Below are positions 6,422-29,427 of a DNA stretch of 64,000 bases, one piece after another (the first letter of the stretch is position 1; every line of letters begins with the position of its first letter). The notes beneath the pieces were generated by a model that saw only the letters and a program-made list of their open reading frames with translations, did not search any database and had not been told where the DNA came from. Both the position numbers and the translations under genes were made by a program. The DNA is from Kiritimatiellia bacterium. Its GTDB lineage: Bacteria; Verrucomicrobiota; Kiritimatiellia; RFP12; UBA1067. The stretch lies in assembly GCA_050949565.1 (NCBI GenBank), contig JBMNFY010000015.1, positions 1-64,000 on the forward strand, in the 5' to 3' direction.

Positions 6422-9400
6422 TCACTCTTCAACGACTATCCGGAACCCGACATTGAACACGCCCTGCCACGCCTCGTAACCGAGACGGTAACTTGATGTG
6501 GCGCGGTACGGCCGGTCATAGAACGACCCGCCGCGCACCGTCTTCTTCACGTCATGACGCCGCGAATCGCTCTTGGGCGAATACGGATAACGCGCGTAGT
6601 CGCTGCGCGTCCACTCCGCCACGTTTCCATGCATGTCAAACAGCCCCCACGCATTGGGCTGGTACTGTTTGGTGCCGGACACCAAGAACTGCTTGTCATC
6701 AAAGTCCGAGACGCGCGGCACAAAGTCATAGGCCCTGTTACCCACAAGTCCCTTGTTAAAGACCGGATTGACCCCGTTCACCGCATACTTCTGGATCGAC
6801 TTATCCGCGAGGTTCGCGAACGGGCTGAAATCATCGGTGACCGCACCGAACGACATGGGCGACGCGCTGCCCGCGCGGCACGCCCATTCCCACTGCGCCT
6901 CGGTCGGCAACGCGACTTTCGCGCCGCTCCGTTTCGCTGCCCAGGCGCAGAAGGCGTCGGCATCGATCCAGCTCATACGCACGGCGGGCTGCTCGACATA
7001 GTTGGCATAGTAACCGAGCCGCACATGGTCTTTGTATTGCTGATCGAAGACACTGGCGTTATGATCGGGTTTGAATGCAAAGAAGGCCGCATTGTTGATT
7101 TCGCTTTCTGACATCCAGAAGGGCTTCTCGATCTTGATATGATGGCGCGGCTGCTCGAACGCGGTCTCCGTATCGCTGCCCATCACGAACTCGCCCGCCG
7201 GGATACGCACCAGCGTGATGCGGATGCCGTCTCCCAGATCAAGCGTGCGCGTGATCTCGCCCCCCGCCTCACGCTGCATACGCTTGGCGGTATCGGCATC
7301 GAACGGCCATCCCTTCGCCGAGACGTTGACCGGCGCGGAGCGCTCTTCGCTCTTCTCGCCGGTGGGCTTGACCGGGTAAGGCTGCGCCGGCACCGCCTCC
7401 CAATCGTCGTCAATGTTGGCGTATTTCGCGCGCAACTCGGCTGCACGTGCGGAGATGTTGGTGGTCCACGCATGCCGATTGACATCCAACGAGTAGACCG
7501 ACGTCCAGTTGCCGTGGTAGGGCACGTTCAGATCGATCCACGTATAGAGGCGCTGCCACGATTCATCGTCCAACTTCACCCCGTAATGCCCCTTCTCCAA
7601 AAGCTGTATGCCCTCTGAGGTCGAGGCGTGGAATTCATAGGGGATGCCCATCGTTCCCGCGCTCTCTGGACCGGGACGACGGAAGTAGCGGTGGAAAGCG
7701 TGATACGAGTGGCTGAACCGCTCCTCGATGCGCTTGGTGTCGACCAACTCCTTGTTTTTGAAGTCGGGCTTCTTCGGGTCGCTGCCGTCATGGCAGCGGA
7801 TGCAGTAGGCATCAAGAACCGGCTGGACCTCCATCGCGAAGGCAAAGCCCTCCACCGTCGCACGGTGCGGCGTGATGGCCTGCGGCGGCTTGCCGGAAGC
7901 GATGGTCTTGGTGGTGATCGGCGGCTCGTTCGGCGGCTCGTGGCAGCCGATGCACGAAAGCTTCTCGCCCGGCATCACGACCAGCCAACTCCGGAAGAGT
8001 TGGACGGCACGGCCTTGGCTGTCGAGCGGCTGCAGCGAGATCGTGGTGTTGGCCGGTACGCGGAACATGGCCGAGCCGTCTTCCTCAACCTTCACAGTAC
8101 CCAGCAGGCGCTTGATGTCCCAGCCGCTTTCAACACCGATGTGATGGTGGTTGCCGATGTTGTAGTAGCCGTATGCGTAAGTGAAGAGCCGCAGGGATTT
8201 GATCGTGCCCTCCGGCACACCCTTGAGACCGGGACCGCGATAGACGTTCTGAATGTAGCAGACCCCCTCCTTGTCCTTCAGGTTCACTTTACTCGGAATG
8301 ACGGGCGGACGTACGCGCTTCTTGAACGGATAAGGCTCGACCATGTAACGGTATCCGCCGGCCTCAGGATTAGCGAGGGGCACCATGTTGTCAAACGTGT
8401 CGACCAGATAGAGCCCCCACGAGCCCTGCCCGGTGAGCTTGGCGACCGTCAGGTAATACTCCGCGCTGAGCGGATAGGGCTGGACGAACTGCGGGAAGAC
8501 GCCGTCAACCAGTGTGTCCAGATCCAGCGCCATCTCAGGATAGATGTGTTTCAGCCGGGGATAGCACTTGTTGAAGAAATCGTTGTTCAACTCATGATAG
8601 TCTTTGTCCTTCTGCGACTCCGGCGGCATCTGCTCGGCAATCAGCTTATCGACATCCTGCTGCAGGTTTGGGAACTGCCCCAGCAGTTCTTTCTTGACGG
8701 TCGGATAGAGCTGGTCCACGGTCACATGCGTCACCTTCTTGCCGTAACCGGGAATGTGCTGGACCACGCCGTCAGCATGCACATGCCCCTTGTTGGTGTC
8801 AAAGATCGTCAGCTTGCCCGATCCCGCGACGCCGTGATGCCCCGAGACCACAGCGATGAACTGGCCGGGCTTGCCGGGGATCGGCCGCGCGTTGAACATG
8901 GAGTTCGGCCACAGGCACTGCGATCCGTAGATGGAGCGCTGGTTGGTGCCGTCCGGATTCATCGTCATCATGATGCGCGCATAGTAGTGCATGATGTCGG
9001 TGTATTCCCACCGCAGATACATGATTTGGCCATCCTCGCGAACCGTCGGATACCAGTCCGCGTCCTGCTCGAATGTCAACTGCCGCGTGTTGCCACCGTC
9101 GGCATCCATCACATAGAGGTTGGGCACCGTGCGCGACCCGCCGATGCACGGCACGCCGATCAACGGCGCAGTGGAACTGAAAACAATCCGCTCGTCCGGC
9201 AGATAAATGCCACCGTAGTTATGCACGTACTGCCCGATGATCGTCGAGACCTGCCGGAGATTCTTGCCGTCGATCCCCACCTCCATCACCTGGAACATAT
9301 TGTTGGTGTCGGTCGCTGTGAAAAGCAACTTGTCACCGTCGTAGTGCAGATCCAACTCACCCAGATACGAGCCGTCCTTCGGCTCATAGATGTCGGCGAC

Positions 9401-16563: not shown

Positions 16564-17326
16564 TTTTAACGCAGAGACGCAGAGACGCAGAGGTTGTGGG
16601 TTGTGGGGTTTTAACGCAGAGACGCAGAGACGCAGAGGTTGTGGGTTGTGGGGTTTTAACGCAGAGACGCAGAGACGCAGAGGTTGTGGGTTGTGGGGTT
16701 TTAACGCAGAGACGCAGAGACGCAGAGGTTGTGGGTTGTGGGGTTTTAACGCAGAGACGCAGAGACGCAGAGGTTGTGGGTTGTGGGGTTTTAACGCAGA
16801 GACGCAGAGACGCAGAGGTTGTGGGTTGTGGGGTTTTAACGCAGAGACGCAGAGGTTGTGGGTTGTGGGGTTTTAACGCAGAGACGCAGAGACGCAGAGG
16901 TTGTGGGTTGTGGGGTTTTAACGCAGAGACGCAGAGACGCAGAGGTTGTGGGTTGTGGGGTTTTAACGCAGAGACGCAGAGGTTGTGGGTTGTGGGGTTT
17001 TAACGCAGAGACGCAGAGACGCAGAGGTTGTGGGTTGTGGGGTTTTAACGCAGAGACGCAGAGACGCAGAGGTTGTGGGTTGTGGGGTTTTAACGCAGAG
17101 ACGCAGAGACGCAGAGGTTGTGGGTTGTGGGGTTTTAACGCAGAGACGCAGAGACGCAGAGGTTGTGGGTTGTGGGGTTTTAACGCAGAGACCGCAGAGG
17201 TTGTGGGTTGTGGGGTTTTAACGCAGAGACGCAGAGACGCAGAGGTTGTGGGTTGTGGGGTTTTAACGCAGAGACGCAGAGACGCAGAGGTTGTGGGTTG
17301 TGGGGTTTTAACGCAGAGGCGCAGAG
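16564..17326 (+). repeat. Tandem array of a 45-bp unit, 17 units plus a partial 18th
   Basis: Unit ttttaacgcagagacgcagagacgcagaggttgtgggttgtgggg. Units at 16834 and 16961 lack one gcagagac (37 bp) and the unit at 17178 is a 38-bp variant. Confidence 0.97.
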
Positions 17327-17342: not shown

Positions 17343-17723
17343 TCAAAGTCTGTTTACAACACGATGGATACCCTCTTTAATTGTCGTTGCACCGAAATTG
17401 ACCACAAGTCCCAACTTGAGGCTTTTTAAGCGGAGATACGTCAGCACCTGGATGTCGAAAATCGTGTTGTAGAGCTCAACAGCCTTACACTCAACAACCA
17501 CTTTTTCCTCAACCAGCAAATCCAGTCTCAGGGGTGTCCCTAAACGATGCCCTTTGTACACAAGAGGGACGGGCACCTGTCGTTCTACTGAAACGCCCCT
17601 ATCCTGCAACTCAAATGCTAGAGCTTCTTCATACACGGACTCAAGCAACCCCGGCCCACCCAATTCCTTGTGGACAGCAATCGCAGCATCAAGAATGATC
17701 GCGCTGATCTCATTCTCTACCAT
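17343..17723 (-). CDS. GxxExxY protein (PD-(D/E)XK nuclease-like, PDDEXK_3 type)
   Basis: VHKELGGPGLLESVYE.AL..EL, RLDLLVE.KVVVECKAV, QVLTYL, GLVVNFG. Lower GC than its neighbours. Confidence 0.95.
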   Translation of the reverse strand: MVENEISAIILDAAIAVHKELGGPGLLESVYEEALAFELQDRGVSVERQVPVPLVYKGHRLGTPLRLDLLVEEKVVVECKAVELYNTIFDIQVLTYLRLKSLKLGLVVNFGATTIKEGIHRVVNRL

Positions 17724-17765
17724 TCCATCTCTCCGCAATTAGTATCCCTACGCTAAAAACATCCA

Positions 17766-18072
17766 CGTAGCAACCCCTCTGCGTCTCTGCGCCTCTGCGT
17801 TATTATTTCCCCGTAGCAATGCCTCTGCATCTCTGCGTTACTTATCTCTCCGTAGCAATGCCCCCCAAAAAAACTCTGCGCCTCTGCGCCTCTGCGTTAT
17901 TATCTCCCCGTAACAATGCCTCTGCGTCTCTGCGTTATTATTTCCCCGTAGCAATGCCTCTGCATCTCTGCGTTACTTATCTCTCCGTAGCAATGCCCCC
18001 CAAAAAAACTCTGCGCCTCTGCGCCTCTGCGTTATTATCTCCCCGTAACAATGCCTCTGCGTCTCTGCGTTA
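17766..18072 (-). repeat. Higher-order repeat: 135-bp unit x ~2.2, built from (ctctgcg)n-tta...ccgtagcaatg subunits
   Basis: The block starting ~17795 repeats 135 bp later. Each subunit is the reverse complement of the taacgcagag motif. Confidence 0.9.
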
Positions 18073-19578
18073 TTCGCCGCTTGTGCGTGCCTTCGAGCTG
18101 CGCACTGCGGGTAGAAAGCCGTCGGCGCACACGAAGGAAAGCAGCCAGACGGTCAGAATCGCGGGCGAACGGAAGGGCAGATCGCCGAGCGAATGACAGA
18201 CGGTAGCAGCCGTGCCGACAAAAACCGCGACCGCCTCGGGCGGCAGGTGGTAGAGCCAGACCGGTTTGGCGGGGATCGCGTCAAGTCCCGTAGATGTGAG
18301 CGCGCGGGTCGTACGGACAGACTGCACTACCAGCGGCACGATCAGCGTAAGCGCGCAGAGCACCATCAAGCCAAAACCGACGGCCCCCTGCTCGGCCAGA
18401 AACTGCAACGTATCATTATGCACATTCGCGCCGCCTTGGATCTGCATGGCCTTGCGCTCTTCGGGCGTCATGGAGGCGATGGCAAAGTGAGGATACCCCC
18501 ACCCGCCCACACCAAACAGGCGGTGTTCGTTAAAAATCTCTAGCGCCACGCGCGCATGATATTGACCGCGCCCCGAGACCCGTTCGAAGACCGCAGACGG
18601 CGTGATGGTGGCCAACTCGGTCTTGAGGGCCTTCGGTGCGAAGATGGTGAAGGAAAGAACGACCAGTAGCAGCACACCGAAAATTATGCCGACCAGTTTG
18701 ACATGTCCACCCGACTCGCTCTTCTGCCAAATGCCGACCAACATGTAAATACTAAGGACCAAGAAGACCACACCACAGAGCAGGATCGCGGCGCGGCTCA
18801 GCGAGGCGATGGCGGCCACGAGATTGAGCAACACGGGGATCAGCAACCAGTGCGGACTAGAGACGCTATCATCCTCTGGCCATGTCACGCCAGCTGCGGC
18901 CGGTCCGAGCCGTTCGCCGCTTGCACGGCTAAACCAGAGACCCGTTGCGAGAGCGAAGTGCAGGGTAAAGAAGGCTCCCGCAAAATTGGGGTACCCGAAC
19001 GTGGAGAAAAAGTGGGAGAAAGTCTCTGCGCCCCAGTAGACGCTTGTCGCACCGGTTATCATTTGCGCGAAGCCCAGCAGCGCCAGCGCAGCCGCATTCC
19101 AGCAGAGGGCATGCAGCAGCAGGCGCTTGCCGCGCTTTAGAAGTCCATGCCGCGCGGCGAGCACGGCGATCAGTGCCGGCACATACCAAAGCAACAGGAC
19201 GGCGTGTTCATCGGGATTGACGCAGAAGGGCAGGCCGGGATACGGCGGCGACGGGATGCGCCATTCCTTGGTCTGCACGTTGAACTGCGGTTCCCCCGCG
19301 ACATTGAAGAAGGGAATCACCAACAACACGGTCAGCAACAGGCCGAGGTAGAGCAACGGATCGCGGACTAATGAGCGCCAGACACGGCGGCGCGCTTCGA
19401 CCCATGTCTCGCTGCTTTTGGCCTGCGGAAAGACAAGCAGGTACTCAAGTACAAGCACGGTAAGCCACGGGATGACCGGCATCAGCAGGTCTGGGCGTGT
19501 GCCGCCGTGAATCCAACTGAAGCCGATGACCAGCAGCAGGATGTGGAGCATCAGGACGTTGCGGATGAAGAAGTTCAT
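18070..19578 (-). CDS. O-antigen ligase/polymerase family membrane protein
   Basis: Multi-TM, F.YPNFAG, SLSRAA, FGVGGWG, HNDTLQFLAEQGAVG, HSLGDLP. Confidence 0.88.
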   Translation of the reverse strand: MNFFIRNVLMLHILLLVIGFSWIHGGTRPDLLMPVIPWLTVLVLEYLLVFPQAKSSETWVEARRRVWRSLVRDPLLYLGLLLTVLLVIPFFNVAGEPQFNVQTKEWRIPSPPYPGLPFCVNPDEHAVLLLWYVPALIAVLAARHGLLKRGKRLLLHALCWNAAALALLGFAQMITGATSVYWGAETFSHFFSTFGYPNFAGAFFTLHFALATGLWFSRASGERLGPAAAGVTWPEDDSVSSPHWLLIPVLLNLVAAIASLSRAAILLCGVVFLVLSIYMLVGIWQKSESGGHVKLVGIIFGVLLLVVLSFTIFAPKALKTELATITPSAVFERVSGRGQYHARVALEIFNEHRLFGVGGWGYPHFAIASMTPEERKAMQIQGGANVHNDTLQFLAEQGAVGFGLMVLCALTLIVPLVVQSVRTTRALTSTGLDAIPAKPVWLYHLPPEAVAVFVGTAATVCHSLGDLPFRSPAILTVWLLSFVCADGFLPAVRSSKARTSGE

Positions 19579-19579
19579 G

Positions 19580-19865
19580 GAAGTTAATTAGTGCTTGGTT
19601 TTTTTATCCACAGATGGACACAAGATTACGCGGATTTTTGGGGACAGGGCTCGGGTTTATTTAACGCAGAGGCACGGAGACACAGAGGTTTTTTGGGGAG
19701 TGGCAGGGCTGGCCGCAAGTTATTGCGACCACCCAGTGGTCGCAATGATGAGTGTAAAAACGGGCGGAGGTTGGGCACTGGGCGCACACAGGGCATGCAA
19801 TGAGAGCCGTGACATACCAGATCGTCACGCCACACTCCCAAACTAATGAACTAATGAACTAATGA
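19580..19865. repeat. Intergenic repeat mosaic
   Basis: tatccacagat module, linker gggacagggctcgggttt, taacgcagaggcacggagacacagag, palindrome attgcgaccacccagtggtcgcaat (19722-19746), (ctaatgaa)x3. Confidence 0.8.
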
Positions 19866-20685
19866 ACTTCTCCAACTCCGTCTGCCAATGCGGCATGGGG
19901 GGAAGGCCGGCGAGACGCAACATGCGTTTTTCCAAACGGGAGTTGGCGGGGCGCGGAGCCGGACGCGGAAACGCGGCGGTCGTACAGGGTGCCAGACTGC
20001 GGGCAAGACCGGCACACCGAAAAATCTCACGCGCGAAGCCATACCATGTGGTCTCGCCTTCGCAACTGCCGTGTACCACACCGGGGACCGGATGCTCCAA
20101 CAATCGCGCGATCAGTCCGGCAACCGCCTCGGTTGAAGTGGGGTTGCCGATCTGGTCGTCGACAACCTTGAGCGGCTCCCCCTCCTGAACTCCGAGTTTG
20201 AGCATTGTATGGACAAAACTGGGACCGCCCTCGCCGTAGAGCCAGGCGATACGCACAATCGTGTGGTCGGGACAGTGGCGGCGCACCGCCTCTTCGCCCG
20301 CGAGTTTGCTGGCACCGTAAACCGTGCATGGCGCAGGCACGTCGAATTCGTGATACGGACGGTCAAGGCGACCGTCGAACACGTAGTCGGTGGAGATGGC
20401 GATCATACGCGCACCGTGGCGCGTTGCGGCGCACGCCACACAGGCACTACCCAACGCGTTCACGCGAAAAGCGGCGTCGGCATCCGACTCGCAGACGTCC
20501 ACCTGAGTCATCGCCGCAGCATGAATCACGACGTCCGGCTTGAGGCCGCTGATCACCTGCTCCACACTACGGCTGTCTGCGATATCCACCTCCGGCAGGT
20601 CGGCAATGAACAACTCGTGCCCACATAACTTTCGCTGGAGCGTACGCCCTAGCATCCCCTTCCCGCCTGTGATTAAAAGTTTCAT
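19843..20685 (-). CDS. rfbD: dTDP-4-dehydrorhamnose reductase
   Basis: ITGGKGMLG, HAAAMTQVD.CE, ISTDYVFDG, YGASKLAGE, VVDDQIGNPT, PAPRPANSRL. Confidence 0.95.
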   Translation of the reverse strand: MKLLITGGKGMLGRTLQRKLCGHELFIADLPEVDIADSRSVEQVISGLKPDVVIHAAAMTQVDVCESDADAAFRVNALGSACVACAATRHGARMIAISTDYVFDGRLDRPYHEFDVPAPCTVYGASKLAGEEAVRRHCPDHTIVRIAWLYGEGGPSFVHTMLKLGVQEGEPLKVVDDQIGNPTSTEAVAGLIARLLEHPVPGVVHGSCEGETTWYGFAREIFRCAGLARSLAPCTTAAFPRPAPRPANSRLEKRMLRLAGLPPMPHWQTELEKFISSLVH

Positions 20686-20721
20686 GAGTACATTAGCGCC
20701 CTATCGACCGATAAAAAAAGT

Positions 20722-21200
20722 TGTTTTCACCACGAGGGCACGAAGGACACGAAGGTTTTTGAGGTAGCTCTGCTCGGGTCTGTTTAGCCACAGAGGCACG
20801 GAGGCACAGAGTTTTTCTGGGGGCAGGGCTCCGGGTTTGTTTAACCACGAAACACACTGAATACACGGAAAGGCATGGCTCGGGTCTTCGGAACCGCCAA
20901 GACGCCAAAAACGTCAGGGCAAGCTCCAGTTTTCATGAGGTTTCATGTGTTTCATGGTTCGGTTTTGTTTAACGCAGACGCAGAGGTTTTGGAGGGCGAG
21001 TGTCCCCACGAGCCGCCTTCCGCTATACGGAAGGATGGCCTCAAGTTCCTTCGCAGAGCACTGGGAGGGACGAGCGTCGCTCGTCCGCGGGCAAGCAGAC
21101 GCTTGCCCCTCCCTGCGCTTCGCAAACCGCGCCACTTGATGTTGAAAGTTGAGCGTTCGATCCCGATAGCACACTAATTAACTAATGCACTAATGAACTT
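20722..21200. repeat. Array of six different short-period motifs with linkers, followed by REP-like palindromes
   Basis: Motifs listed in the findings. REP-like ggagggcgagtgtccccacgagccg and ggagggacgagcgtcgctcgtcc..gggcaagcagacgcttgccc at 20991-21112. Confidence 0.8.
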
Positions 21201-22594
21201 CAATAACGATAGTGCTCGGGCTTGTACGGGCCTTCGACTGGCACGCCGATATAATCGGCTTGGGTCTGGCTCATGACCGTCAGCTTCGCGCCGAGCTGGT
21301 CGAGGTGCAAACGGGCGACCTCTTCATCCAACTCCTTGGGCAGGCGGTAGACGTCGGTCTCCAGCGTCTCATTCCAGAGTTTGATCTGGGCGAGGGTTTG
21401 GTTGGTGAAGCTGTTGGACATCACGAAGCTCGGGTGACCGGTGGCGCAACCGAGATTGACCAGACGACCATCCGCGAGCAGGTAGATGCAGTGGCCATCG
21501 GGGAAGATGTACTTGTCCACCTGCGGCTTGATGTTGACGTGGCTGATGCCGGGCCACGCCTTGAGCTTGGCCACCTGAATCTCGTTGTCGAAGTGGCCGA
21601 TGTTACAAACGATGGACTGGTCACGCATGCGGCTCATGTGTTCGGCGGTAATGACATCGCAATTGCCGGTGGCGGTCACATAGATGTTGGCGTAAGGCAG
21701 CGCGTCCTCAACAGTCGCAACTTTGAAGCCGGCCATGCAAGCTTGCAGGGCGCAGATCGGATCGACCTCTGAGACCCACACCTGCGCTTTGTGCGCCTTG
21801 AGCGCCTCAGCGGAGCCTTTGCCGACATCGCCGTAGCCGCAAACAAAGGCAACCTTGCCGGCGACCATCACGTCCATCGCGCGCTTGATACCATCGACCA
21901 GCGACTCGCGACAGCCGTAGATGTTGTCGAACTTGGACTTGGTCACCGAGTCGTTGACGTTGATCGCAGGCACGAGCAGTTTCTTCTCGGCGGCGAGTTG
22001 GTAGAGGCGATGGACGCCGGTGGTGGTCTCTTCGGAAACCCCCTTCCAGGTCTTGACCGCACGACCGAACCAACCGGGCTCCTCCTTAAGGATGCTCTTG
22101 ATCAACGCATTGACGACGCGCAACTCCTCGTTGTCGGTGGGCTCGTCGAGGAAAGCGGCGTCACGCTCGGCATCAAAACCGCGGTGTAGCAACAACGTCG
22201 CGTCACCGCCGTCATCGACGATCAACTGGGGTCCCGAGCCGTCCGGCCAGGTCATCGCCTGCTTGGTGCACCACCAGTACTCTTCGAGTGTCTCTCCTTT
22301 CCAGGCGAACACCGGAATGCCACGCGCGGCGATGGCTGCGGCAGCATGATCCTGTGTGGAGAAGATGTTGCAGGAAGCCCAACGTACATCCGCACCTAGC
22401 TCCACGAGCGTCTCGATGAGCACGGCGGTCTCAACCGTCATGTGCAGGCTACCCATGACGCGCGCGCCTTTGAGCGGCTTTTGCGGGCCGTACTTGGCGC
22501 GCGTGGCCATAAGGCCCGGCATCTCTTTTTCAGCGATCTCAATGGCCCTGCGGCCCCAATCGGCCAAGCCGATGTCTTTGATTTTGTAGTTCAT
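21200..22594 (-). CDS. ahcY: Adenosylhomocysteinase
   Basis: [75 protein letters not shown]. Confidence 0.98.
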
Positions 22595-22596
22595 AA

Positions 22597-23781
22597 TTAT
22601 TTCACACCTGCGGCGGAGCGGAGGGCGGCGGCGCGGTCGGTTTTTTCCCACGGGAATCCCTCACGGCCGAAATGGCCGTAGTTGGAGGTTCCGCGGTAGG
22701 ACCAGCCCTTCGGTTTGGTGAGGCCGAGGTCCTTGATCAGCATGCCGGGACGGAAATCGAAGATTTCATTCGCCATCAGAATCTTGGCGATTTTCTCATC
22801 GTCGATACGACCGGTACCGTAGGTGCTGACGTTGATGCTGAGCGGCTTGGCCACACCGATGGCGTAGGCGACCTGAATCTCGCACTTGTCGGCAAGACCA
22901 GCAGCCACGATGTTCTTTGCAGCATAGCGGCAGTAGTAGGCAGCCGAGCGATCGACTTTCGATGGATCCTTGCCGGAAAAAGCGCCGCCGCCGTGCGATC
23001 CGACACCGCCGTAGGTGTCGACGATGATCTTGCGGCCGGTCACGCCGGAATCCCCGCAAGGCCCGCCGATTACGAAACGACCGGTGGGATTGATGTAGAA
23101 CTTGGTCTTGTTGGTCAGCATGCCGGTGTCTTTGAGAAAATCGCGCGCGACCTCCTCGAGATCCTTACGGATGCGCGTAATCGGCACGTCGCAGGTCTGA
23201 TGCGAGATTACCACAGCAGTGATCTCCTTGGCACAACCGTCCTCGTGCAACACGCTAACCTGAGACTTTGAGTCGGGACGCAGGTACTTAATTTCGCCCT
23301 TCTTGCGTAGCGCCGTGAAAAACTGCAACAGCGAATGCGCGTAGACAATCGGTGCCGGCATGAACTGCCGCGTGGCGTTCGACGCATAGCCGAACATCAT
23401 GCCTTGATCGCCCGCGCCCTGATCTTCGGCTTTGGCCTTGGTAACGCCGCGCGCGATATCGCCTGACTGTCCATGCAGTGCGCAAAGATAGTTGAACGTA
23501 TCGTAGCTGAAGCCTTCCGTAGGATTATCGTAACCGATGTCCTGCACCACTTCGCGCGCGATCTTACCGGGATTGATCCGATCCCAGTTTTTGCAGGTGA
23601 TCTCCCCGAGGTTGACGACGAGGTTAGGGCCGACCGCCGTTTCGCACGCTACACGCGCGGCGGGATCATTTGCCAGACAGGCATCCAGAATCGCGTCAGA
23701 TATCTGGTCGCACACTTTGTCAGGATGGCCCTCTGAAACCGATTCGGAGGTGTACACATGGCGCGTTGTCATCTTACTCAT
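22597..23781 (-). CDS. metK: S-adenosylmethionine synthetase
   Basis: [52 protein letters not shown]. Confidence 0.98.
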
Positions 23782-26920: not shown

Positions 26921-29234
26921 TTTTTTAACGCAGAGGCGCAGAGACGCAGAGGTTTTTTGGGGGCATGGTTCGGGTTTTTTATCCACAGATTTTTTGTTTT
27001 GCCCGCAGGATGGGAGGGACGAGCGTCTGCTCGTCCGCGGGCAAGCAGACGCTTGCCCCTCCCGGTGCTGCGCGAGACGAATCATAGGCTGGAGGGCGAG
27101 CGTCCCTGCGAGCCGCCTTCCGCGTTGCGCGCGGAGGGAAAGTGGTGCCGCGACCCGCGCACAGCGCGGCCCTTGTCACCGCACTCCAGATCCCGGGCGA
27201 AAAATTTGGAGTGCGGCGGCAAGCGGTATCCCGCGCGACGCCGCTTTTTCGGCGTTCGACGTTCAGCGTTGGGCGTTCGGCGTTCACAAAACGGCGGCGT
27301 GGAACGCCGCCCGGACGGGCAGACGCTTGTCCCTCACGGCTCTCCGCGAGCCCGTACACCGCGCAGGTGGGGCTGCCGGTGACAATGCCCGCCGGTATCG
27401 ACCTGACAGCCGTGCGGGCGGCAATGGCGCTCGATAAAAAAAGGGCGGACGGCGAAATACGATTCGCGTTGCCCGCCGCGATCGGCGATGTGCGCACCGG
27501 AATCGCGGTCGACGACGCTCTTCTCGGTAATGTTCTGAGGTAGTTTTTTAACGCAGAGGCGCAGAGACGCAGAGGTTTTTTGGGGGCATGGTTCGGGTTT
27601 TTTATCCACAGATTTTTTGTTTTGCCCGCAGGATGGGAGGGACGAGCGTCTGCTCGTCCGCGGGCAAGCAGACGCTTGCCCCTCCCGGTGCTGCGCGAGA
27701 CGAATCATAGGCTGGAGGGCGAGCGTCCCTGCGAGCCGCCTTCCGCGTTGCGCGCGGAGGGAAAGTGGTGCCGCGACCCGCGCACAGCGCGGCCCTTGTC
27801 ACCGCACTCCAGATCCCGGGCGAAACATTTGGAGTGCGGCGGCAAGCGGTATCCCGCGCGACGCCGCTTTTTCGGCGTTCGACGTTCAGCGTTGGGCGTT
27901 CGGCGTTCACAAAACGGCGGCGTGGAACGCCGCCCGGACGGGCAGACGCTTGTCCCTCACGGCTCTCCGCGAGCCCGTACACCGCGCAGGTGGGGCTGCC
28001 GGTGACAATGCCCGCCGGTATCGACCTGACAGCCGTGCGGGCGGCAATGGCGCTCGATAAAAAAAGGGCGGACGGCGAAATACGATTCGCGTTGCCCGCC
28101 GCGATCGGCGATGTGCGCACCGGAATCGCGGTCGACGACGCTCTTCTCGGTAATGTTCTGAGGTAGTTTTTTAACGCAGAGGCGCAGAGACGCAGAGGTT
28201 TTTTGGGGGCATGGTTCGGGTTTTTTATCCACAGATTTTTTGTTTTGCCCGCAGGATGGGAGGGACGAGCGTCTGCTCGTCCGCGGGCAAGCAGACGCTT
28301 GCCCCTCCCGGTGCTGCGCGAGACGAATCATAGGCTGGAGGGCGAGCGTCCCTGCGAGCCGCCTTCCGCGTTGCGCGCGGAGGGAAAGTGGTGCCGCGAC
28401 CCGCGCACAGCGCGGCCCTTGTCACCGCACTCCAGATCCCGGGCGAAACATTTGGAGTGCGGCGGCAAGCGGTATCCCGCGCGACGCCGCTTTTTCGGCG
28501 TTCGACGTTCAGCGTTGGGCGTTCGGCGTTCACAAAACGGCGGCGTGGAACGCCGCCCGGACGGGCAGACGCTTGTCCCTCACGGCTCTCCGCGAGCCCG
28601 TACACCGCGCAGGTGGGGCTGCCGGTGACAATGCCCGCCGGTATCGACCTGACAGCCGTGCGGGCGGCAATGGCGCTCGATAAAAAAAGGGCGGACGGCG
28701 AAATACGATTCGCGTTGCCCGCCGCGATCGGCGATGTGCGCACCGGAATCGCGGTCGACGACGCTCTTCTCGGTAATGTTCTGAGGTAGTTTTTTAACGC
28801 AGAGGCGCAGAGACGCAGAGGTTTTTTGGGGGCATGGTTCGGGTTTTTTATCCACAGATTTTTTGTTTTGCCCGCAGGATGGGAGGGACGAGCGTCTGCT
28901 CGTCCGCGGGCAAGCAGACGCTTGCCCCTCCCGGTGCTGCGCGAGACGAATCATAGGCTGGAGAGCGAGCGTCCCTGCGAGCCGCCTTCCGCGTTGCGCG
29001 CGGAGGGAAAGTGGTGCCGCGACCCGCGCACAGCGCGGCCCTTGTCACCGCACTCCAGATCCCGGGCGAAAAATTTGGAGTGCGGCGGCAAGCGGTATCC
29101 CGCGCGACGCCGCTTTTTCGGCGTTCGACGTTCAGCGTTGGGCGTTCGGCGTTCACAAAACGGCGGCGTGGAACGCCGCCCGGACGGGCAGACGCTTGTC
29201 CCTCACGGCTCTCCGCGAGCCCGTACACCGCGCA
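26737..29234. repeat. Four tandem copies of a 623-bp unit (aroB 3' end plus repeat-rich downstream DNA)
   Basis: Units start at 26737, 27360, 27983 and 28606. The junction hexamer cgcgca recurs at 29229-29234. Confidence 0.97.
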
Positions 29235-29261
29235 TCGAAATCTCAATCGGCCTTTCACAGG

Positions 29262-29340
29262 GCGGGCGGGGACGTCCGCTCCCGACTGCGCACACGCAAA
29301 CTACACACTAAACTCGCATGACCCCTGTCACCAACCGATT
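29262..29340 (+). repeat. ~80-bp inverted repeat, partner at 31552-31632 (contains the truA start codons)
   Basis: gcgggcggggacg..cgctcccgactgcgcacac...actcgcATGacccctgtcac.aaccgatt occurs on opposite strands. Confidence 0.9.
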
Positions 29341-29352
29341 ACACAATCAGGC

Positions 29353-29381
29353 TTGAAGGCATGCGTCTCTTCCGGTATTAT
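29353..29381 (+). promoter_or_regulatory. Candidate sigma70 promoter for the AAA-ATPase gene
   Basis: TTGAAG-17 bp-TATTAT. Pattern match only. Confidence 0.35.
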
Positions 29382-29427
29382 ACTGACACTTATTTGCTAA
29401 TTATCTTTCAGTATGTTGAGGGATATT

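Follow-up and report, generated by a model that had tools for sequence, protein, structure and literature searches.

What brings six different periodic motifs together in one intergenic spacer? The 514-nt spacer between rmlD and ahcY in a Kiritimatiellia bacterium (genome G000; 4.66 Mb, 92% complete) contains such an array. A first-pass annotation of the 64,000-nt stretch of DNA analysed here (the window) had read it as sites of different GxxExxY specificities that accumulated at one hotspot, forming an array that could be an insertion record or a decoy/immunity array. The questions that the locus raises are what the units are, where else they occur and whether their arrangement belongs to this site.

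Six periodic modules in the rmlD-ahcY spacer

Five forward modules and one inverted module (U5) lie within window positions 20729-20986 (Table 1); the series of six motifs and the linker shared by units 1-4 were both present as first described. All six units fit one grammar, in which a T-rich lead-in and an ACC/AAC-type anchor precede a 7-10-nt word present in 2-3 copies spaced 8-10 nt apart; U4 and U6 are degenerate. The gap between U4 and U5 is without a linker of the GCTC(C)GGGTYT type. The lead-in of U1 also occurs 5' of U1-type modules at C4:23686, C4:131670 and C17:604752 (contig and position in G000).

Within the array, TRF reported U1, U2 and U5 only. A three-window periodicity score (maximum 24; cut-off 19) reached the cut-off at 2120 sites in the genome, compared with 167 in a shuffled genome. 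Counted by hand, U1, U2 and U5 scored 20-22 and passed, whereas U3 and U4 scored 17 and 16, a range in which shuffles yield 43-65% as many hits, so that periodicity alone is not significant for either unit. We nevertheless consider U3 and U4 to be real because both match multi-copy families: at 4 or fewer mismatches, and with the array copy counted in, the genome held 110 matches to U3 and 16 to U4, alongside 22 to U1, 10 to U2 and 154 to U5. Most of the U5 matches (107/154) differed at 1 position, and the array copy of U4 is 4 mismatches away from the other 15 genome copies.

Triple words of the ACTAATG type sit on the 3' ends of both flanking genes: at 19841-19868 for rmlD, where a module at 19841-19863 overlaps the stop codon, and at 21172-21199 for ahcY, where a seventh module (21172-21194) abuts it; the last eight codons of rmlD and its TAG stop appear to be encoded by the repeat. 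In congener G204, an ACTAATG word provides the TAA that ends ahcY as well as the ATG that begins rmlD, giving a junction of the TAATG type.

Table 1 Features of the locus and GxxExxY loci of the same genome. Positions without a contig are those of the window.
Feature	Position	Strand	Content	Basis
GxxExxY gene nearest to the array	17343..17738	-	Arms ACGCAGAG, CGCAGAG-type (U6 type)	TIGR04256, E 1.9e-39; PF13366, E 4.6e-38
rmlD (dTDP-4-dehydrorhamnose reductase)	19843..20685	-	Flanking gene	TIGR01214, E 6e-92
Left boundary and lead-in	20713..20728	+	A-run and GTTGTTTTC ahead of the ACC anchor of U1	
U1	20729..20755	+	CACGAAGG-type triple-word module: ACC + CACGAGGG/CACGAAGGA/CACGAAGG	TRF
Linker 1	20756..20785	+	T-run, G-rich stretch, GCTCGGGTCT (20772-20781), TTT lead-in	
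U2	20786..20811	+	CACAGAGG/CACGGAGG/CACAGAG; CACAGAGG/CACGGAGG-type module	TRF
Linker 2	20812..20842	+	Core GCTCCGGGTTT (20828-20838)	
U3	20843..20873	+	CACGAAACA/CACTGAATA/CACGGAAA; CACGGAA/CACTGAA-type module	
Linker 3	20874..20892	+	Short; core GCTCGGGTCT (20878-20887)	
U4	20893..20919	+	CGCCAAGA/CGCCAAAAA/CGTCAGGG; CGCCAAG-type module, third word decayed	
U5	20930..20959	-	CATGAAA x3, period 10, inverted; closing unit of the chain U1>U2>U3>U4><U5	TRF
U6	20971..20986	+	Truncated CGCAGAG-type: two CGCAGAG words, 1-nt deletion	
Hairpin-rich repeat element	20988..21128	+	High-copy, ~130 nt, REP/MITE-like	blastn coverage, fold
Seventh module	21172..21194	+	ACTAATG-type triple words; abuts ahcY stop codon	TRF and word annotation
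ahcY (adenosylhomocysteinase)	21200..22651	-	Flanking gene	TIGR00936, E 7.5e-177
GxxExxY gene	G000:C17:1382786-1383127		Arms ACCACAGAA/CACTGAA/CACGGAA (U3 type)	
GxxExxY genes	C17:565156 and C17:555128		Arms ACCATGAAA (U5 type)	
GxxExxY locus	C17:1746651		Arms CACGAAT	
GxxExxY locus	C7:32940		Arms CGCAAAG	

Array modules match the arms of GxxExxY genes

GxxExxY loci (TIGR04256/PF13366) number six in G000, including a split one, and each has its own triple-word arms. These account for U3, U5 and U6 (Table 1). For U1, U2 and U4, no cognate GxxExxY gene was found in the 92%-complete G000; in other genomes of the class, the U1 type flanks GxxExxY genes at loci L005, L016, L021, L029 and L050, the U2 type is exemplified by L020 and L026, whose arms are nearly the same as U2, and the U4 type flanks genes at L034, L043 and L081. 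Every unit type of the array is therefore an arm type of some GxxExxY lineage, in keeping with the first-pass annotation.

The family was present in 155 of the 201 genomes searched in the class. We fetched 80 loci, comprising the 73 highest scorers among places no closer than 450 nt to a contig start and 7 from genomes of the same family or order; loci L085, L088 and L089 were left out of the analysis. The 84 loci with an ORF comprise 78 of the 80 fetched, the 5 intact G000 genes and 1 syntenic gene from G105, a genome of another genus. Flanking arms of the module grammar were recognisable at 66 of these 84 loci, with none at the other 18, and in many genomes the arms lie 0-30 nt from the GxxExxY start or stop codon. 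The syntenic G105 orthologue of the gene nearest to the array (89% identity) retains CGCAGAG-type arms.

Across 28 relatives, the protein keeps its catalytic residues E28, D68, E78 and K80 without exception, and the predicted protein model (pLDDT 91.6) has a minimal PD-(D/E)XK core. Its nearest solved folds are Cas4, lambda exonuclease, the AdnAB nuclease domains and Hjc, all distant (TM-scores ~0.5), and a PDB sequence search with the protein gave no match. PF13366/TIGR04256 is very large: of 8000 candidate clusters that were scored, at least 7974 matched at E<=1e-10. In the accessible part of one survey, the function of GxxExxY/PF13366 is given as unknown (PMC3424549), and no link to repeats was found in the accessible parts of the literature searched on GxxExxY, PDDEXK_3 and PF13366.

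In G000, the arms of the nearest gene are amplified at 16564-17326 and 17777-18074, with a 45-nt unit, made up of triple ACGCAGAG and GGTTGTGGGTTGTGGGG, in 17.5 copies on one side and 38/135-nt units on the other; the syntenic G105 orthologue has one or two arms per side only. G105 also has a GxxExxY pseudogene with one in-frame TAA between metK and ahcY (L001, G105:C111, 5816-6169), two genes that abut in G000.

Module type follows protein clade

We compared arm type with protein phylogeny, for which a rapid maximum-likelihood tree was built from the 84 proteins. Arms were assigned by eye to 13 classes, because two automatic labelling schemes left 40 and 42 of the 84 loci without a label. Arm class changed 16 times on the tree, the minimum possible being 12; shuffled labels required 43.1 changes on average and never fewer than 37 (300 shuffles). 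Module type thus appears to be specific to the protein clade, bearing out the proposed correspondence between motif types and GxxExxY clades. The clades cut across host families, with several clades in one genome, and sister clades are often one word letter apart (CACGAAG/CATGAAG, CGCAAAG/CACAAAG and CGCAGAG/CGCAAAG).

Agreement between arms and clades is not proof of recognition, as common descent of a gene with its arms gives the same pattern. Descent likewise confounds the alignment columns that co-vary with arm class (reference positions 122, 55, 3, 8, 59 and others), as it does three fixed differences, at positions 4, 75 and 121, between the sister groups with CATGAAG and CACGAAG; both sets may serve as leads only.

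Mixed chains recur across the genome as blocks

The array is one of many mixed chains. Annotation with a list of 12 word types found 1714 modules in G000; a shuffled genome gave 304, almost all of them with only two words. Chains with at least two types numbered 233 (3 in the shuffle), those with at least three types 66 (0) and those with at least four 37 (none). Two loci carried 7 types, and the rmlD-ahcY array and one tandem array carried 6, a ranking favoured by the word list itself, which was written after viewing G000 and contains the six types of the array.

Module order within the chains is biased. CACGAAGG preceded CACAGAG in 12 cases and followed it in 1, and preceded CACGGAA in 11 versus 2; CACAGAG stood ahead of CGCCAAG in 6 cases versus 0. 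Mixed adjacencies were in direct orientation in 202 of 381 cases, and CATGAAA was opposite in orientation to its neighbour in 145 of 150. Orientation relative to flanking genes showed no consistent bias, although these counts are unreliable because a crude ORF model placed 541 of 1088 chains 'inside ORFs'.

The order U1-U2-U3-U4-U5(inverted) is repeated at C8:151936-152169, at 78% identity over 251 nt, and recurs in part at C8:238394-238554, C1:142916-143057 and C6:30909-31138. Among 63 chains of at least three types and at most eight modules, 47 had a colinear paralogue elsewhere that covered 80% or more of the chain. Identity reaches 92-95% in several pairs of dispersed chains, and composite units have been tandemly amplified, for example at C5:12435-13500 and C17:778370-781622. 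Single units of the array match other loci at 92-97%, whereas the best paralogue of the whole block reaches 78%, so unit-by-unit assembly or conversion towards a family consensus is possible. Taking these data together with the arm types, we favour, with a probability of roughly 0.6, the reading that the array is a BIME-like mosaic of gene-less GxxExxY cassette ends, spread and remodelled as blocks. On this reading, what the ahcY-rmlD spacer carries is most likely DNA of a selfish or neutral kind.

The first-pass annotation had taken the linker to be conserved, and this held genome-wide within a narrow lineage. Of 175 unique same-strand gaps of 24-45 nt, 127 carry GCTCGG at 1 or fewer mismatches, and the linker consensus is TTTTT-GGGGG-..-GCTCGGGTTT-.-TTTAAC. 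The pattern GCANNGCTCGGGTTT occurred 67 times in G000, compared with 0 for a reversed-pattern control; in six congeners it was found 8 and 15 times in two and 0 times in four, and it was found once among 19 more distant relatives. The linker is thus a young trait of the lineage rather than a general part of the cassette. A loose linker regular expression gave no enrichment (1916 in the genome, 1836 shuffled). As an idea only, the linker core CATGGCTC might be a truncated inverted CATGAAA arm, CATGGTTC, with which it shares 7 of 9 letters; the middle letters of the linker vary.

Resident nucleases may drive the size of module families. The top three families, with 232, 194 and 178 modules of at least three words, belong to types that have a resident GxxExxY gene, but two types with a resident gene form small families (CACGAAT, 7; CGCAAAG, 29). 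The types of U1, U2 and U4, which are without a cognate gene in G000, have 100, 99 and 33 copies of at least three words.

The spacer and a paralogous site in relatives

The content of the ahcY-rmlD spacer differed in every relative examined. In G204 (G204:C197), where ahcY is 98% and rmlD 82% identical to the G000 genes, ~11 nt separate the ahcY stop from the rmlD start and the mosaic is absent. The G203 spacer (~90 nt) has the lead-in that also precedes U1 in G000 (A-run-GTTGTTTTCACC), followed by a hairpin, without words; the G201 spacer (L084, G201:C616, 677-852) is 176 nt long and holds a GGTTCAA-hairpin element. The G105 spacer (L001, G105:C111, ~7700-8350) has a small gene framed by GGTTCAA-hairpin repeats, which we take to encode a four-helix-bundle or 23S rRNA-intervening-sequence-type protein. 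These differing contents identify the spacer as a landing place for small elements. The G201 spacer looks like a gene-less version of the G105 repeats in an equivalent place, and the repeats and the G105 gene may form a second small gene-plus-arms system.

The spacer is also the border between the conserved metK-ahcY region and a more divergent polysaccharide locus, and the identities of ahcY and rmlD in G204 indicate that it coincides with a recombination border of that locus. This position, together with the low rmlD identity, means that the array has no clean empty site. A clean empty site came from the C8 locus, where G000 holds a five-unit chain: in congener G202 the site is unoccupied, between flanks of 95-96% identity, and G204 has a two-arm U1-type element whose outer U1 arm and both flanks are common with G000. 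No target-site duplication was seen in this empty-site comparison. The three states indicate that chains were inserted and then remodelled at occupied sites. At two further chain loci, the congener contigs break.

These comparisons bear on the proposal that sites of successive GxxExxY specificities were added singly at a hotspot, as a locus-specific insertion record or a decoy/immunity array. The variable spacer, empty in G204 and occupied by other small elements in G203, G201 and G105, agrees with that proposal; so does the simpler state of the C8 locus in a congener, which implies that an array already in place can be extended or exchanged for another, as does the higher identity of single units than of the whole block. 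We nonetheless regard it as distinctly unlikely, because the same type order occurs at other loci within a genome-wide order bias and 47 of the 63 mixed chains tested have colinear paralogues. In addition, the array has no leader-like end, the nearest nuclease gene is 3 kb away and nothing in it is indicative of immunity. Contigs from four sequencing runs (2 DNA and 2 RNA-library) of four studies spanning 2016-2023 are without a single difference across 20300-21017, with no gain or loss of a unit. These data do not support a record or decoy array special to this locus. Joints and indels seen at the array in run contigs were rejected as locus variants, as multi-copy depth and extra letters point to cross-mapping from paralogous chains.

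In a further explanation, modules are host regulatory sites, such as phased sites for a DNA- or RNA-binding protein controlling polysaccharide gene expression, and the link to GxxExxY is secondary. All spacers of the polysaccharide locus bear forward modules antisense to the genes, and contigs of the two RNA libraries extend from rmlD through the whole chain, which is compatible with transcription but is not proof of it. This explanation is very unlikely, however, given that G204 almost lacks the spacer and that its content is of another kind in G203, G201 and G105, that promoter-like sites (0, compared with a shuffled mean of 0.2) and terminator-like sites (2, compared with 1.2) are unremarkable, that an Rfam search of the window matched no family, and that the module families are genome-wide and not bound to one pathway.

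A hairpin repeat element adjoins the chain

The element next to U6 is covered by 100-260 blastn HSPs per position, corresponding to more than 100 copies, and folds into strong hairpins at 20988-21128. The best copies of a 157-nt form, at C4:131562-131408, C11:47240-47395 and C17:138696-138849 (~90% identity), begin at U6; U6 is the 5' head of a 130-157-nt hairpin element and lies outside the chain proper. The module type 5' of the element varies, being CGCAGAG here but CGCGAAG at C17:453280-453520. The assemblies from the four runs all end inside the element.

An adjoining high-copy hairpin element whose best copies start with a module raises the prospect that another enzyme, for example a RAYT/IS200-type HUH transposase acting on these repeats, mobilises the chains, with GxxExxY genes as passengers that share their ends. 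We consider this unlikely. The modules themselves are not palindromic, and folding of the chain revealed nothing notable outside the hairpin element. Moreover, clade-specific words placed within 30 nt of GxxExxY start and stop codons in many genomes are not expected of passengers.

Relation to known repeat systems and a possible mechanism

The nearest published analogue, judged from the accessible parts of the two papers, is the REP/REPIN repeats with their RAYT transposases and the BIME clusters that they form (Nunvar et al. 2010, PMC2817692; Bertels & Rainey 2011, PMC3116915). Both systems have short dispersed intergenic repeats in which family-specific copies flank a cognate enzyme gene in inverted orientation, gene-less copies far outnumber genes and several enzyme-repeat pairs share a genome; as in BIMEs, copies form composite mosaic clusters with conserved linker motifs. 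Unlike RAYTs, the enzyme here is a PD-(D/E)XK protein of ~125 aa rather than an HUH/Y1 transposase, and unlike a REP, the module is an anchor with three phased direct words rather than a hairpin-forming imperfect palindrome, the only hairpins being those of the adjoining element. BIMEs have alternating orientations in the accessible part of the account (PMC2817692), whereas modules of the chains described here tend to be direct (202 of 381 mixed adjacencies), with conserved linkers, and a single chain can combine arms from as many as seven enzyme lineages.

The array resembles a CRISPR in that conserved stretches of ~30 nt alternate with variable stretches of ~27 nt. However, its linkers (the 'repeats') are only three and loosely alike, its 'spacers' are multi-copy families with internal periodicity, and the window gave no Rfam match. 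Like a MITE, a chain is small and non-coding, has outermost modules that are inverted and, at the C8 locus, is inserted relative to the congener empty site; unlike a MITE, the array has ends of differing types (U1 and U5), an interior made of further end modules and, at the C8 locus, no target-site duplication. New here are the mixed-chain grammar, the preferred order, the block paralogues, the tree test of type-to-clade mapping and the comparison of empty and intermediate states.

The mosaic reading can be put as a mechanism. A complete cassette consists of two inverted modules bracketing a PD-(D/E)XK gene, with its own word for each protein clade, and each module presents two or three words about one helical turn apart behind its lead-in and anchor. 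The array has one forward module of each of four types, connected through the lineage-specific linker, and ends with a fifth type in inverted orientation. Mixed chains in general behave as composite dispersed repeats, which insert between genes, reach other loci by block copying and are altered where a module is already present. We infer that the words may be phased binding sites for the cognate nuclease. A cut at a module could be repaired from an ectopic chain with a shared module, dragging neighbouring modules and linkers along, which would explain both the shared order and the shared linkers.

Clade-specific arms give the PF13366/TIGR04256 family a testable substrate, and mixed chains show several GxxExxY lineages using common landing sites and being copied jointly. 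Should the nucleases indeed read the words, the system would parallel REP/RAYT on a different enzyme fold and provide a natural case of modular sequence recognition. For annotation, it accounts for hundreds of odd intergenic tandem 7-10-mers in G000. A bolder proposal, doubtful but conceivable, is that GxxExxY proteins form a large nuclease family that reads words, with specificity changing one base at a time as the arms change, and that mixed chains are exchange hubs, meeting points of the lineages, in which a cut at any module copies the whole chain. Were this true, chains would spread sites for several nucleases, would allow cassette ends to be swapped and could titrate nucleases through a decoy effect.

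Other repeats in the window

Two further places in the window carry module repeats. The wzy-rmlD spacer (19600-19700) holds a short chain, on the + strand and antisense to the genes, composed of a CACAGAT-type module, the linker known from the array (GGGCTCGGGTTTATTTA) and a mixed CGCAGAG/CACGGAG/CACAGAG module. At 26929-29400, 3' of the aroK/aroB gene, there are four tandem copies of a 623-nt unit, each with a triple CGCAGAGG module at its start and TTCGGCG x5 inside. An ORF within the 623-nt unit weakly matches the C-terminus of aroB (E 1.2e-4), suggesting that the end of the gene was duplicated along with the repeat.
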